Of a stretch of 34,125 bases of DNA, positions 8,525-26,575 are shown piece by piece (position 1 is the first letter of the stretch; every line of letters starts with the position of its first letter). The position numbers and the translations under genes were made by a program. This DNA comes from a virus (taxonomy: Duplodnaviria > Heunggongvirae > Uroviricota > Caudoviricetes). The stretch spans positions 1 through 34,125 of the IMG/VR virus record IMGVR_UViG_2563366806_000008. One strand, given 5' to 3'. The notes beneath the pieces were generated by a model. The model searched no databases. It saw only the letters and a program-made list of their open reading frames with translations, and was not told where the DNA came from.

Positions 8525-9751
8525 TCAACCTTTCAATGCTTCAATCGTATTATTAAGTCGACGCAACAGGTCGTCGTACGTCAATATGTCTATCATGTTG
8601 GCGTACTTACGTTTGATTATCTCAAAATCAAGCAACTGACCGTCGGTCATGTTACCGTTCGCTATCTGATCGCGTCCGACAATGATGATGGCTTTTGGGT
8701 TAGATATACGAATACACATTCCCGCTGGCAGAGAATTCTTGTAGGCATTCGTAAGCTCTTTTTCACCCTTAACACCCCATTTAGATAAATGAAAAATATA
8801 CTTTTCAGCCTGCATAATACCGCCGCTAAGTTCTGATGTAGGAATATAGTTATCGCGATAGGGCGTCTTGCGAAGGATCTTATCATCAAACGGCTTTTTG
8901 ACTTCGATGATATCAAGGTTGCCGTTTGCATCCACCAGTGCAATGTCTATAAACCGATTTGTTTTAGCCGAAGGATTAGAGTAATAGTCGAAAATTTTAA
9001 CCTTCTCGAGGACCTTGATATATTTTGGAAAAAGTAATGTGATGAAGGGTATCATCAGGCTCTGCCAGTCATCTTCAGACAAGTTAGTTTTGTTATTCAA
9101 CGCATCCTGGATAATGTCTCTTATGAGTGTATATTTCTCAATTTCGAGCTTATTTAAAACTTCTAAATCCAGTTTGTCGGTTTTTCTGATCACTGTTTTT
9201 CTGTTTAGGTAATGTTCATACCGTTCGCGAGCATCTTTCATACCATCAAGATAACCTGCGAGAATAGCGTGAACCCTTGCATTAGCATAGCGATCCAGTT
9301 CCCCTGTGTTGGGGAATTTACTTTGCAACTCCTGGAATACGCTTTTTGGTATAGCTTCCGGCTTATCTCCTCCGATGATGATGGGATTAGTGTGATCGAG
9401 TAGTTTTGAAAGCCGACCAAAAATGGAGACGTTGCGTTCTGACGCAAATACTTTCCTTTCAAGCTTGATGGACTTATGTATAAGGACATCTCGATTAATG
9501 CTTAGAATCCGTCCCGGAACTGTTATGTATTCATTATTAAGCGTGCCAAAATTAAAGGAATATTCGTAATCATTAAAATCCTGAACGGTTGACGGTGGGT
9601 TTCTCAAGTCCTGGAGTTGAAAGTTAAAAATTCGTGAAATGCATACTGTTTGAAATTTATTTAAACTCTCCCAAACCCAAATTATTTGTTCTCCGCTGTC
9701 ACCGTCGTAAGTCATAACAACGTCATTTGATACAAAGCTGAACTGTAACAT
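8525..9751 (-). CDS. Cargo protein (408 aa): N-terminal domain of unknown function plus C-terminal PD-(D/E)xK / RecB-like nuclease domain; candidate anti-phage effector, possibly Shedu (DUF4263)-like
   Basis: AT-rich ORF in the G/FI slot with good RBS (agagga) before ATG at 9751; motifs FIDIALVD (D269/D274), IIEVKK (E283-x-K285) and QAEKY (Q314-xxx-Y318) match nuclease motifs I, II, III. Confidence 0.6.
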   Translation of the reverse strand: MLQFSFVSNDVVMTYDGDSGEQIIWVWESLNKFQTVCISRIFNFQLQDLRNPPSTVQDFNDYEYSFNFGTLNNEYITVPGRILSINRDVLIHKSIKLERKVFASERNVSIFGRLSKLLDHTNPIIIGGDKPEAIPKSVFQELQSKFPNTGELDRYANARVHAILAGYLDGMKDARERYEHYLNRKTVIRKTDKLDLEVLNKLEIEKYTLIRDIIQDALNNKTNLSEDDWQSLMIPFITLLFPKYIKVLEKVKIFDYYSNPSAKTNRFIDIALVDANGNLDIIEVKKPFDDKILRKTPYRDNYIPTSELSGGIMQAEKYIFHLSKWGVKGEKELTNAYKNSLPAGMCIRISNPKAIIIVGRDQIANGNMTDGQLLDFEIIKRKYANMIDILTYDDLLRRLNNTIEALKG

Positions 9752-12511: not shown

Positions 12512-13042
12512 TTATCCGGGGTAAACCGTAATTACATCGCCGTCGTAAGCCACACCACCGGCGAACAGGTAGCCGGGAATGTCCCGGGTAATGTTCAGGC
12601 CAATAAGGTGACGGCTTGCAGGTTTGGCATCAGCAATCAGCCGTTCCATTTCCTGATACATTGCCTCTGTGATGCCACTTTCCAGTACACCAATATCAAG
12701 CCGGAAGGTGCCCGGCGGGTCACTGGTTTCCCACCACTCCGTCACGTTGATGAGATAGCCCAGCGGCTCCACCACACGCCGGATTGCACCTATCGTGCCC
12801 TTATGACAGTGGATGAAATAGGCATCGCGGATAACGGCGCGTTTTGTCGCTTCCGGCCACTTTTCATCCCACCTGTCGACCGAAAACGCCCACGCCAGCC
12901 ACGGCAGCAGATTTGCCGGACAGGTGTCCGGGTTCCACAGTTCACGAATACTGACCGGCGTTTTTTCAATTTCCGCACAGGCTTTTGCGGCGGCGACTTC
13001 AAGCGGTGATGAGCCGGTCGGCAGCAGGCGCGAATCACTCAT
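12512..13042 (-). CDS. I: Baseplate assembly protein I (176 aa)
   Basis: Synteny J-I-H; 176 aa as in P2. Confidence 0.8.
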   Translation of the reverse strand: MSDSRLLPTGSSPLEVAAAKACAEIEKTPVSIRELWNPDTCPANLLPWLAWAFSVDRWDEKWPEATKRAVIRDAYFIHCHKGTIGAIRRVVEPLGYLINVTEWWETSDPPGTFRLDIGVLESGITEAMYQEMERLIADAKPASRHLIGLNITRDIPGYLFAGGVAYDGDVITVYPG

Positions 13043-13947: not shown

Positions 13948-14295
13948 TCAACTCACAGGGATGGTTAACGAAAGTGGCTGGCCGGTATCGTTGTGCTGGC
14001 CGGTTAACGTGACCGTCATTCGCCCGTCAAAGCTGCGCGCCGTGGTGACGGATGACAGGGTGACGCGGGGTTCCCATTTCAGCACCGCCATGTAACAGGC
14101 GACCTTAATCTGCAACTCAAGCGCCGGGGTCTGCGGCTGGTCAATCATTGATGCCAGCAACGAGCCGTAATCACGACGCATCACCCGTGAGCCGACCGGT
14201 GTACGCAGGATATCGCCGATACTCTGGCTGATATGCTCAAGGTCAGTGACAGTCAGGCCATCACTGCGATTCATTCCGAGATAACGCGCTGTCAT
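13948..14295 (-). CDS. W: Baseplate wedge protein W (115 aa)
   Basis: Synteny V-W-J; 115 aa as in P2. Confidence 0.8.
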   Translation of the reverse strand: MTARYLGMNRSDGLTVTDLEHISQSIGDILRTPVGSRVMRRDYGSLLASMIDQPQTPALELQIKVACYMAVLKWEPRVTLSSVTTARSFDGRMTVTLTGQHNDTGQPLSLTIPVS

Positions 14296-14927
14296 AAAGG
14301 ACTCCCGGTTGTGCCGCCGCTGTCGCCGGGGTGTTTATGGGTATGCAGTACCTTACCGTTTGATGAGAGTTCACCGCCGGTATGTTCAATGTTGCCGCGC
14401 ATCGTCCCGCCCTTCTGCACTTCCAGCGTGCCGGTAATCAGCCTGTTGGTGCAGACCACCTCCGGTGTGTCCAGGGTGACGCGGGTTGATGCTTTCACCA
14501 TGACCACCGGCACCGTGGCAGTAACAGAATCAGAGGCCGTCACGCTGGCCGTTTTAATTCCGCTTACCGTAAGTGCACTGGTTTCGGGTTCATATTCAAT
14601 CACCGCCCCGTCAGGGAAACGGATATGCAGGGCATCCGCCGACGCAGACGGCGCGGGGTTATCGCCGGAATAAATCCCCGGCAGAACGAACGCCGTGTCG
14701 AGTTCACCGCCCACGGCCAGAATCAGCACCTGTTCCCCCACGGAAGGTGCCCACCATGTGCGCGAACGCCCGGCGCGATGGGTCAGCCACTGAAGCCAGT
14801 CGGTGCACATGCCGCCGGTCTGCACACGGCAGCGACCGGCGTTAAGGTCGGTTTCGACGACAATGCCGGTGCGTATCATGTTGCGCAGTGCGCGCGCGAG
14901 TTCCTGAATATTTGATAATGTGCTCAT
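14292..14927 (-). CDS. V: Baseplate spike/hub protein V (211 aa)
   Basis: Trimmed to Met giving MSTLSNIQELARALRNMIRTG...; 211 aa as in P2 gpV; the longer ORF (to 14996) would run into the divergent promoter region. Confidence 0.8.
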   Translation of the reverse strand: MSTLSNIQELARALRNMIRTGIVVETDLNAGRCRVQTGGMCTDWLQWLTHRAGRSRTWWAPSVGEQVLILAVGGELDTAFVLPGIYSGDNPAPSASADALHIRFPDGAVIEYEPETSALTVSGIKTASVTASDSVTATVPVVMVKASTRVTLDTPEVVCTNRLITGTLEVQKGGTMRGNIEHTGGELSSNGKVLHTHKHPGDSGGTTGSPL

Positions 14928-14973
14928 ACGGCAATAATGAGAGATATATACTCGATAAACCATTACAACCCGT

Positions 14974-14991
14974 TGTATCATTTTTGGCACA
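14974..14991. promoter_or_regulatory. Perfect TGT-N12-ACA dyad (Ogr-type late promoter box) upstream of V
   Basis: tgtatcatttttggcaca; palindromic dyad centred about 55 bp upstream of the V ATG; P2 late promoters carry this dyad near -55. Confidence 0.35.
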
Positions 14992-15010
14992 ATCAAGAAG
15001 GAACTGAAGT

Positions 15011-15754
15011 ATGGATAAATATCAAATCTGGGAAAATCAAAAAGACACCATCGCCCACCAAGAGTATTTAAAAATCTCCGACACCAATTTACTTGGACAT
15101 ATGCATATTGCCAATTACGAAGTTGTCCAACATGAATTAAGCAAATTCAACTCCCCTGACATTGTTTCCCGTCATTCATTTAACAGAGACAAATTTAAAA
15201 AAGAACATTTAAACATATCAAGACACCTTTTCAATTATATATCTTCAGCATTATCATTTAGAGATTCAACGCGCAACCTACTTAAAACAAAAGCATTAAA
15301 TATTGCCGACATTAAAATCAAATCAGAGGCATTCATCAATCATGAATTCCGAAATAATCCAGTAATAAAATTAATGGAGGATTTAAGAAACATCCTGACG
15401 CATCAAAACATGATCGCCCCATCAATATCATCATTCATGCACCTCCAAAGAAATATAAACATGCACGGCTTTTCATTTAAGATTGAAAGAATCTTAAACA
15501 ATGACAGAACCACCAAACAAACAAAAGAATATTTAATCTCACTAAAGCAAAAAAACTTATTCATTTTACCGATAATAGAAGAATACCAATACACGACTCT
15601 TAAGTATCAACACTGGCTTTTAGCAAGTATCTACACTGTTCATCAAGATACTTACCAAGAATACTGGAATGCGAGAAAAAACATCATGAACGAATGGGGA
15701 GGAGACACTCAGCTAATACCTAAAGAGAGTGAGCTCACTTATTTAACCAGATAA
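15011..15754 (+). CDS. Cargo ORF of unknown function (247 aa), opposite strand to the late operons; candidate accessory/defence gene
   Basis: Strongly AT-rich ORF with RBS aagaagga before the ATG; Asn/Lys/Ile-rich; occupies the S/V junction (P2 orf30 position) on the opposite strand; contains R126-x4-H131 (RNILTH). Confidence 0.6.
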   Translation: MDKYQIWENQKDTIAHQEYLKISDTNLLGHMHIANYEVVQHELSKFNSPDIVSRHSFNRDKFKKEHLNISRHLFNYISSALSFRDSTRNLLKTKALNIADIKIKSEAFINHEFRNNPVIKLMEDLRNILTHQNMIAPSISSFMHLQRNINMHGFSFKIERILNNDRTTKQTKEYLISLKQKNLFILPIIEEYQYTTLKYQHWLLASIYTVHQDTYQEYWNARKNIMNEWGGDTQLIPKESELTYLTR

Positions 15755-15775
15755 CAACCTGGTCAGTTCGCAAAC

Positions 15776-15808
15776 GGAAAAAACTGGCCGCGACATTTTA
15801 TCGCGGCC
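15776..15808 (-). terminator. Intrinsic terminator of the head/lysis late transcript (after S); the same hairpin may also end the plus-strand cargo ORF
   Basis: Stem ggccgcg (15786-15792) / cgcggcc (15802-15808); on the minus strand followed by agttttttcc. Confidence 0.55.
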
Positions 15809-15958
15809 TTAAACATTCAAACGATCACCATTGATGAATCCTTATGCCCCAATCGACTGTATATTTTCAAGTGGCAATTAAAACTTATCCGACGAAAATA
15901 CAAAGAGTGTTATACAACAATCAACAACTCAGCAATAAAGCGTAAAAAAATTGCACAA

Positions 15959-16411
15959 CTAACGATCGAGGTGAGCCAGGATAATCTCTTCAATCATCTG
16001 CACATCCTTACCGGTAAAGCCGAGCAAAGGACGCGCCGGATAATCAATTTTCTTACCGTCTTTCCGGGTTTCTTCCGACAGACCAAACTGATGCACGCTG
16101 GCGATTTTCGGTGACTTCCCGCCGTAAAATTCCATTGATGCCTGTTCCGGGCTGGCGCGGATATGCAAAAAACGACTGGTGATAAGTTTCGCAAACATTT
16201 TTCGCTTAACGCGACCGGTCTTTTTTCTGGCGCTCTGCTGCTGGCGTGGCGCGTAGGGTGTGCCGTCCGGGGCTTTCTGTGCCATCACCCGACGCTGCTG
16301 ACTCTGCCGCAGACGTTTCGCCAGTTCGGCACTCAGTCGCCGACGCCCTGACGGTGACAGCGATTCAATAAGTCCGGCCAGCCGGTCTTCAAAACGCTTA
16401 AACTCATTCAT
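15959..16411 (-). CDS. S: Tail completion protein S (150 aa)
   Basis: Synteny R-S; 150 aa as in P2. Confidence 0.8.
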   Translation of the reverse strand: MNEFKRFEDRLAGLIESLSPSGRRRLSAELAKRLRQSQQRRVMAQKAPDGTPYAPRQQQSARKKTGRVKRKMFAKLITSRFLHIRASPEQASMEFYGGKSPKIASVHQFGLSEETRKDGKKIDYPARPLLGFTGKDVQMIEEIILAHLDR

Positions 16412-25542: not shown

Positions 25543-26472
25543 TCAAACCAGGCTTTTGCCTTGCTTCATTTTTTTAGATGAGTCTAAAAATTTGAAATTA
25601 TCATTAGATGAAAATATTCTTTCTGCGGTATGCCGAATGACTGAAGTATTGAAGACCGCAGCCTGCTCCTCATTACAACTGAATACACCCTCATGACCAT
25701 CAAACTCGCCCGCCAAAAGAAGGTTTTTTGATACTGGGAACAAAACTAAAGTGTCTTTTACACCAAACCCGGGGGAATAAGGGCCTCGTGCTAATTCAGG
25801 ATTAGTCCACATTAAGCAAACTGGGTTATCTGAAGTTATAAATGACCCTTGCCCATCAGATATGGTCATAAGTGACCAGTTGCGTTGATGCAACAACTTG
25901 GTGATAACAGGTACACATTTCATTTCCATATCTATCATGAACTCTCTGATTACATTGATTTCGAAATTATCCCCATCCACAAAATTTTTAATTTTTTCGT
26001 AAGCGAGATCATATGGCAAAGACTCACCCATTTCTTTCTCATAAGCTAATTTGCAATCGTCCCAACGCTCAGCCGAACTAACTGAGGATTTCATGATAAA
26101 CTTTGCTATTTGTTTCAATGGAGATGATAAATGTTCTCGCTGAGCAGGCGTACGTATTGCCAATAAGGAAATAAACTCCAGAATAACATCTTTGGTTTCG
26201 CCTGAAAACTCGCCCCCCTCCTCAAGTTTTCTTAAATGAGTAGCGACACTGCCTTCAAACTCTGCAAGAGAACTCTCGAGATAGTTTGGGTCAACTCCAT
26301 CCAATTCTAATCGGTTGAAATCTCTAACCCCCCCGACATTGCGAGTATTACTCTCAAAGGTTTTGCGCTCCTTTAAATCTATTACAGTTAATTTTGATTT
26401 TTTCCCCCCATTACTTGTAAACCCTTTCAAATAACATTGGGATAAAAAATGATGATGCCTTGCAACACTCAT
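25543..26472 (-). CDS. DUF4238-type cargo protein (309 aa from Met at 26472); candidate single-gene anti-phage protein
   Basis: AT-rich ORF in the tin/old slot; N-terminal HHFLSQCYLKGF resembles the DUF4238 signature (HH-x-x-P/S-Q-x-YL-x-x-F); RBS ggag before ATG at 26472; ORF extends upstream to 26514. Confidence 0.65.
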   Translation of the reverse strand: MSVARHHHFLSQCYLKGFTSNGGKKSKLTVIDLKERKTFESNTRNVGGVRDFNRLELDGVDPNYLESSLAEFEGSVATHLRKLEEGGEFSGETKDVILEFISLLAIRTPAQREHLSSPLKQIAKFIMKSSVSSAERWDDCKLAYEKEMGESLPYDLAYEKIKNFVDGDNFEINVIREFMIDMEMKCVPVITKLLHQRNWSLMTISDGQGSFITSDNPVCLMWTNPELARGPYSPGFGVKDTLVLFPVSKNLLLAGEFDGHEGVFSCNEEQAAVFNTSVIRHTAERIFSSNDNFKFLDSSKKMKQGKSLV

Positions 26473-26575
26473 ACTCAGCTCCGTTATGGCTATAATCGCA
26501 TAAATAATAAGCACTTATATTGCAATCATCTAGTTAAATACACAATATTTATGACTCCGAAATTTCATTAAATCA

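Follow-up and report, generated by a model that had tools for sequence, protein, structure and literature searches.

The window described here, i.e., the whole 34,125-nt stretch of viral DNA that was analysed, is a P2-like prophage with its late genes on the minus strand in the order I (12512-13042), J, W and V, then S, R and the lysis genes, with W, J and I lying downstream of V and R preceding S. Between V and S sits an ORF on the plus strand that encodes 247 amino acids; it was found in the ORF list exactly as the initial annotation had claimed, and identical prophages in RefSeq have the same ORF, labelled hypothetical protein. The overall GC content of this ORF is 33% vs about 57% in the flanks. 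Along the region it drops to 0.31-0.36 over 15000-15800 compared with 0.55-0.62 in the neighbouring late genes, which confirms the AT-rich block described before. The good ribosome binding site also claimed for this ORF is there, i.e., AAGGA placed 8 nt from the ATG, and homologues with 51-59% identity (see below) keep an equivalent purine run at this position. The features of the region are as follows.

14292..14927, minus strand: V, baseplate spike gene (flank), 97% identical to P2 V
14915..15954, no strand: exchangeable module, non-homologous to "empty" and orf30-type junctions (alignments)
14952..14981, plus strand: candidate sigma-70 promoter TCGATA-N18-TATCAT (consensus scan)
14974..14991, no strand: TGT-N12-ACA dyad TGTATCATTTTTGGCACA, centre about 55 nt upstream of the V ATG (14927)
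14998..15002, plus strand: Shine-Dalgarno core AAGGA, 8 nt 5' of the ATG, read from the sequence
15011..15754, plus strand: cargo gene, 247 amino acids, ATG start; cytosolic protein of an unannotated family
15386..15403, plus strand: codons of R126-N-I-L-T-H131, an Rx4H motif of HEPN type that closes predicted helix 117-131 at its C-terminus
15786..15808, no strand: GC-rich hairpin GGCCGCGATAAAATGTCGCGGCC, then a minus-strand T-run, between the convergent cargo gene and S
15959..16411, minus strand: S, tail completion gene (flank), 97% identical to P2 S

Both flanking signals named in the initial annotation were located. The hairpin with its T-run (15808..15786 on the minus strand) reads as the terminator of the S operon, and it probably ends the cargo transcript as well; in the second E. 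coli allele of the region a compensatory G-C to A-T change retains the stem pairing. The TGT-N12-ACA dyad beside the V start is present at 14974-14991 and is presumed to be the Ogr-type activator site of the V late promoter (pV), as the P2 GenBank record annotates a pV activator site at the equivalent position relative to V. The bare pattern is not significant alone (3 matches in the window vs 8.95 expected); the dyad therefore carries meaning because of its position, not because of the frequency of the pattern. It is kept in all carriers of the cargo gene, and the distant homologous locus L006 retains five of the six half-site bases.

The ORF at 15011-15754 is a real gene under purifying selection. 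Its two E. coli alleles share 76% protein identity with a dN/dS of 0.16-0.17, and copies of allele 2 (strains NCTC9040 and DETEC-E601) compared with each other give 0.13. Four other P2-like backbones have an intact version of the reading frame at 51-76% identity, in each case located in the S/V junction and running against the late genes. In the homologues at 51-59% identity, the backbone proteins S, W and V share no more than 53%, 70% and 75-77% identity with their window counterparts, and the phages that carry them have backbones of about 75% nucleotide identity to any sequenced peduovirus. AT-rich sequence with biased strand composition and no annotation is what one would expect of a non-functional remnant or of a chance ORF in junk DNA; this explanation is already refuted, and its probability is close to nil, by the dN/dS of 0.13-0.17, by the full-length frame kept at 51% identity, and by the 337 profile relatives with invariant residues and the confident fold prediction described below.

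As a cargo position the S/V site is not new: it corresponds to the orf30 locus of P2, which is already known to be variable. The TO-region, the Z-region and orf30 have been described as the three loci of P2-like phages that hold foreign genes (PMC3091744). The initial annotation was thus right that the site is not one of the two best-known P2 hotspots, but it had overlooked that the site is the recognised third locus (PMC3091744). Recent hotspot papers concentrate on other sites, and neither PMC9122126 nor the iLund4u P2 analysis deals with the S/V site. P2 Orf30 itself (NP_046770, 261 aa) occupies the same place in the same opposite orientation as the window ORF, between the O-operon terminator and the pV activator site, and resembles it in its similar size, AT richness and nonessential nature (the P2 record reads "Orf30; nonessential"). 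There is, however, no sequence similarity between the two, and homology to P2 Orf30 was rejected; by eye, the translation of P2 Orf30 shows extended hydrophobic segments that resemble those of a membrane protein.

A match to the P2-type S-V region is present in 1585 of 5426 complete E. coli genomes, and 18 of the 1585 have the cargo ORF (6 at 99% nucleotide identity or above and 12 at about 88-90%). The states of the junction were estimated from records sampled at even steps down the ranking: about two thirds of the sampled E. coli junctions are "empty" (66 bp), about a quarter are of the orf30 type, and single sampled records hold a 357-aa ORF or a co-directional HNH-like ORF. Compared across P2-like prophages, as the initial annotation had proposed, the junction occurs in empty, orf30, 357-aa, HNH-like and window-type states. 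The 357-aa ORF (L017 809-1882, NZ_CP061764) has no family match. The HNH-like ORF (L019 995-1543, NZ_CP116067) is apparently frameshifted to 182 aa, and phage R18C has a co-directional HNH-like S/V ORF of 246 aa (L025 681-1421). Homology of the window ORF to this 741-bp ORF of R18C was rejected, the latter being co-directional and HNH-like. Compared with the tin/old and Z/fun hotspots, the S/V site is a different locus, far less diverse and mostly empty. The defences at tin/old and Z/fun (Rousset 2022, PMC9122126) and the window ORF have in common that they are AT-rich accessory genes exchanged between near-identical prophages; the former are lysogen-expressed, which is only predicted for the window ORF.

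The status of the ORF as horizontally acquired cargo, as put forward initially, is supported by its AT richness, its presence in only 18 of 1585 genomes and its absence from the common 66-bp empty junction. Alignments to the empty and orf30-type junctions place the limits of the exchanged segment at about 14915, inside the fifth codon of V, and at about 15954, just before the S stop. It contains the first approximately four codons of V, the pV promoter region, the cargo gene, the hairpin and a 150-bp AT-rich spacer; with these limits the module comes with a pV promoter region and a terminator of its own. The start of the V coding sequence varies with the junction (L001/L016), reading MSTLS with the cargo and MNTLA in the empty and orf30 types, which puts the recombination boundary of the module within V itself. 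No direct or inverted repeats were found to flank the module; a transposon-like insertion was rejected on this ground, and exchange presumably takes place by homologous recombination in V and S. The backbone can be near-identical between two prophages (S 98.7%, V 95.3%) and yet the cargo only 76% identical, which is the fast turnover expected of accessory genes. One copy (L003 1210-1953, NZ_CP116176) is a mosaic in which the first approximately 38 residues are of the window allele and the rest is of allele 2, indicating recombination within the cargo gene as well. The AT-rich spacer of about 150 bp (15809-15954), which separates the terminator hairpin from the S stop, occurs in both E. coli alleles and is missing from the 51-59% identical homologues L006 and L009, which have the hairpin only.

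The opposite orientation of the gene had been taken to imply an independent promoter. A consensus scan gave one candidate, TCGATA-N18-TATCAT, which matches 9 of 12 consensus positions and is the only sigma-70-like match upstream of the cargo gene; its -10 element shares bases with the pV dyad, on the left side of the latter, and its -35 element falls on the pV core promoter. All carriers have TATCAT unchanged, and all keep the purine-rich ribosome binding site. The claim is therefore borne out as far as a conserved sigma-70-like candidate goes, but such matches occur in this region at chance level and the conservation of TATCAT may reflect the overlapping dyad rather than a promoter. If the candidate is real, the cargo gene would be transcribed in the lysogen from its own weak sigma-70 promoter, interleaved with a silent Ogr-dependent pV, and RNA polymerase would be unable to occupy both divergent promoters at once. 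In the lysogen, pV would be silent without Ogr and the cargo promoter would be free; once late development is under way, binding of Ogr and polymerase to pV would occlude the cargo promoter, and such a shut-off of the cargo gene at pV activation would spare the prophage's own lytic cycle. The overlap of the candidate promoter with the pV site gives a testable idea of how a prophage avoids death by its own abortive-infection gene.

The initial annotation could name no family for the protein, and indeed no Pfam, PADLOC, NCBIfam or PDB sequence model matches it. The cargo protein gave no match above threshold to Pfam, PADLOC-DB 2.0 or NCBIfam, and neither did the 76-135 relatives to Pfam, PADLOC and NCBIfam; the sole library match is PHROG 12680, whose function is not assigned. 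Profile searches of PDB sequences returned only spurious weak matches, e.g., TRF2 and tropinone reductase, and megablast and tblastn against 50,697 phage records returned none. The close family consists of 7 clusters. A profile search of 1.84 billion representatives, however, found 337 relatives at E<=1e-3 (clusters at 50% identity), most of them 220-310 aa long and matching over their full length, along with a few fusions of 450-720 aa. In the longer proteins (P0029, P0037, P0052, P0076, P0078 and others, 600-720 aa) the domain is N-terminal and fused to about 450 residues, that matched nothing in Pfam or PDB; in P0052, another R-x4-H string (RINDRH) occurs close to the C-terminus. On a T4SS-bearing contig, an ORF just upstream of the relative P0041 (L027 2492-3325) encodes a protein of the same length (277 aa) that aligns weakly at "QLHNYL" and "LRNLIL" (no His). 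This neighbour may be a degenerate paralogue; as a tandem paralogue it was not significant (E 1.3).

Conservation was read from alignments of 76 and 135 relatives drawn from the 337, with 14-76% identity to the window protein. N75, R126 and H131 are invariant in the 135 relatives, at least 90% of the sequences in the 76-member alignment have N127, and N35, R88, L125, Y192 and W202 are nearly invariant in both; the family consensus reads ...RLLHNFLASAxSLVDHTR...DLRNYxLH.... The string R126-N-I-L-T-H131, which had been noticed as a possible HEPN RNase motif, does exist in the translated ORF. The earlier caution that it could be a chance match is contradicted by the conservation check proposed at the same time, i.e., by the invariance of the R126/H131 pair across all 135 relatives.

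An AlphaFold model built with the alignment of profile relatives has a pLDDT of 95.9 and a pTM of 0.91; an earlier run with six close homologues was poor (pLDDT 56.7) and was discarded. The model has helices at 14-44, 59-90 (long), 99-112 (a short insert) and 117-131, the last one ending in the motif, followed by a beta-hairpin (138-157), two short helices, a strand, a long helix (185-214) and a final one (216-226). The all-alpha HEPN fold suggested initially thus fits in that the protein is mostly alpha-helical, but not in the beta-hairpin insert at 138-157. Foldseek searches of PDB and BFVD did not confirm a HEPN fold, giving nothing with E <0.1. The top rows were ClyA/Cry6Aa-like pore-forming toxins, which we rejected (E >=0.11, TM <=0.25); such a toxin is also unlikely as no hydrophobic stretch is seen by eye in the hairpin region.

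HEPN domains carry the Rx4-6H motif where helix 3 ends and the loop towards helix 4 begins; the Arg is most often followed by N, D or H, and inserts between helices 2 and 3 are common (PMC3710099). Further criteria are a four-helix up-and-down bundle, a dimer that juxtaposes two motifs, and metal-independent RNA cleavage. In the window protein the motif R126-N127-I-L-T-H131 has a polar Asn after the Arg, and the order of elements in the model, with core helices assigned from the secondary-structure string, is H1, H2, insert, H3 with the motif at its end, and H4; each putative core helix bears one conserved residue. In this model with a pLDDT of 95.9, the motif thus closes a core helix on its C-terminal side, in agreement with the HEPN definition. 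Helix 2 lacks the acidic residue (Ex3[KR]) that many HEPN families have, though not every one of them; the invariant N75 and the near-invariant R88 are found there. The beta-containing insert of about 50 residues between putative H3 and H4 is unusually large for HEPN. The data show a real and mobile gene under purifying selection, with an invariant RN-x3-H placed as in HEPN domains.

HEPN membership as such did not come out of the profile searches, since no HEPN profile reaches threshold. The nearest family is pEK499_p136 (PF18736; "HEPN family nuclease" WP_000528932 of plasmid pEK499). The window protein does not match PF18736 even at E<=10, and one of the 135 relatives (P0105) does, with 16.8 bits and E 0.0057 over residues 103-163, below the gathering cutoff of 26.6 bits. 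For profile comparison we built a 56-member alignment of the pEK499 protein. hhalign placed motif on motif with P 0.012 and a probability of 3.7%, and its score was above all 60 column-shuffled controls; with -glob it gave a degenerate 2-column alignment, which was disregarded. A low-stringency alignment is collinear, with N35-Y36 on N3-Y4, N75 on N44, R126/H131 on R96/H101 and the last helices together. When the motif is removed, the N- and C-terminal halves score about 0.06 and 0.05 vs shuffles. Both proteins are stand-alone and encoded on mobile elements. They share an N-terminal "NY" element, an early helix with an invariant Asn (N44 and N75, respectively) in place of the helix-2 acidic residue, and R-N-x3-H; the spacing from this Asn to the Arg is 52 in pEK499_p136 vs 51 in the window protein. 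In both, the motif is followed by an extended stretch and then by a final aromatic-rich helix, the strands being predicted in the window protein and judged from sequence alone in pEK499_p136. They differ in length (166 aa vs 247 aa). The window family is longer at the N-terminus by about 30 residues, and its insert between the motif and the last helix is much larger. These comparisons are suggestive of a distant homology to the pEK499_p136 family, not a proof of it.

It is our best reading, to which we give slightly less than an even chance, that the ORF is a moron at the orf30 locus encoding a lysogen-expressed, single-gene, cytosolic, HEPN-like and metal-independent abortive-infection RNase. 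The closest functional precedent is HepS of the Salmonella prophage Gifsy-1, a solo HEPN abortive-infection protein without antitoxin, which is an anticodon nuclease kept inactive until it is triggered by a phage protein (siphovirus tail-tip) (PMC13043305). Like the window protein, HepS is a single-gene prophage accessory of fewer than 250 aa that has an Rx4H motif but neither a partner nor an antitoxin; it occupies an accessory-gene site of its prophage, and it was first recognised from its predicted structure. No sequence relationship between the two was detected, however, the profile search of PDB sequences being without a HEPN match, and HepS belongs to a different prophage type and locus. 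The activity, the trigger and the tRNA anticodon cleavage of HepS are experimentally shown, whereas the window protein is known from sequence and model, for which we infer the RNase activity, the lysogenic expression, the trigger and the defence phenotype. The protein at rest would be an inactive oligomer, which infection by a foreign phage would activate; paired R126/N127/H131 sites would then cleave RNA (tRNA or mRNA), and the cleavage would abort the infection in the manner of solo HEPN proteins such as HepS.

The invariant Asn, Arg and His could instead form a ligand- or protein-binding site on a helical scaffold of a new fold, and the protein might then act in superinfection exclusion or as a regulator or sensor. 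We regard a non-nuclease as unlikely. It is true that no structural neighbour turned up and that no HEPN family gave a significant profile match, that some members of the HEPN superfamily and some look-alikes are non-catalytic (PMC3710099), and that some relatives are fused to about 450 residues of unassigned function. However, HEPN RNases have as their catalytic signature just such a strict R, N and H, with x4 spacing, where a core helix ends, and a binding role alone hardly explains such strict invariance of the motif. Even if the protein is not a nuclease, it still is a confidently modelled fold without a structural neighbour in PDB or BFVD.

Many HEPN proteins are toxins of toxin-antitoxin modules (PMC3710099), and an AT-rich spacer follows the gene in the E. 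coli alleles. One may thus think of an addiction module that stabilises the prophage rather than sensing phages, with an unrecognised antitoxin encoded as a small RNA or peptide in the spacer 15809-15954 or as an antisense transcript. The spacer, however, has no ORF longer than 33 aa, no Rfam match and no repeats, and a small RNA or antitoxin there was rejected for the lack of an Rfam match and of a conserved ORF. It is missing from the homologues at 51-59% identity. No conserved small ORF, Rfam match or repeats accompany the gene, nor is there a conserved neighbour in nine distant contexts, and we find a toxin of this kind very improbable.

The nine contexts of distant relatives that were examined contain no conserved partner gene, and four of them are defence-island-like: one relative is directly downstream of an MmeI-type restriction-modification enzyme, one is among SNase, SocA/Panacea and an Eco57I-type methylase, one is among KAP NTPase, GIY-YIG, a helicase-methylase (RM) and SIR2, and one is beside nSTAND and a DUF4011 helicase. 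The other five have no recognised defence genes (two mark mobile elements and three are uninformative). These contexts bear on whether an RN-x3-H-dependent enzyme, HEPN-like or other, serves the phage itself and not host defence, e.g., as an RNase or RNA-binding factor in lytic growth or lysogeny, in counter-defence, or as a weapon against P4-type satellites. Such a role would agree with the one locus kept across P2-like backbones whose S is only 53% identical, and with the promoter region of the cargo gene being physically interlocked with pV. On the other side, about 99% of E. coli P2-type prophages do without the gene and about two thirds of the junctions are empty, so the gene is dispensable for the phage; it is also oriented away from the late operons, and its distant relatives are found in chromosomal defence islands or beside RM genes, not in phage lytic modules. 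A phage-serving enzyme is, in our estimate, rather improbable.

A bolder form of the abortive-infection reading, likewise rather improbable, is that the ORF represents an undescribed and widespread superfamily of divergent HEPN-like single-protein immune nucleases with a promoter wired into the late-gene switch. The promoter would share DNA with the Ogr-dependent pV, and in this way a suicide nuclease would be silenced and self-targeting escaped. We consider the cargo protein a reasonable follow-up candidate and not a categorically new kind of system. If it is an active defence nuclease, then a family has been missed completely by PADLOC, Pfam and NCBIfam, immunity genes are found at the neglected third P2-like locus (orf30) too, and there is a compact HEPN-like enzyme, acting without a partner, whose trigger could be mapped by simple phage-escape genetics.

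The same prophage has two other AT-rich islands, both with recognised defence genes (two of the three islands). Like the four defence-island-like contexts of distant relatives, these neighbours speak for a defence role of the cargo gene through guilt by association only. At the Z/fun hotspot, between the tail fibre genes and FI, an AT-rich ORF of 408 aa on the minus strand (8525-9751) is a full-length Shedu SduA (PADLOC PDLC04067, E 8e-219). At the tin/old hotspot, between the portal gene Q and the replication gene A, an AT-rich ORF of 323 aa, also on the minus strand (25543-26514), encodes a DUF4238 "Pers" protein (PADLOC PDLC03000, E 2e-219), and a DUF4238 single-gene system has been reported to be anti-T7 (PMC9122126). 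With the cargo gene at S/V, all three AT-rich islands of the prophage are occupied. Near one prophage end we also observed the gene of the small RNA CyaR/RyeE on the plus strand at 1445-1530 (Rfam RF00112, 100.7 bits), which suggests that the prophage is integrated beside cyaR.
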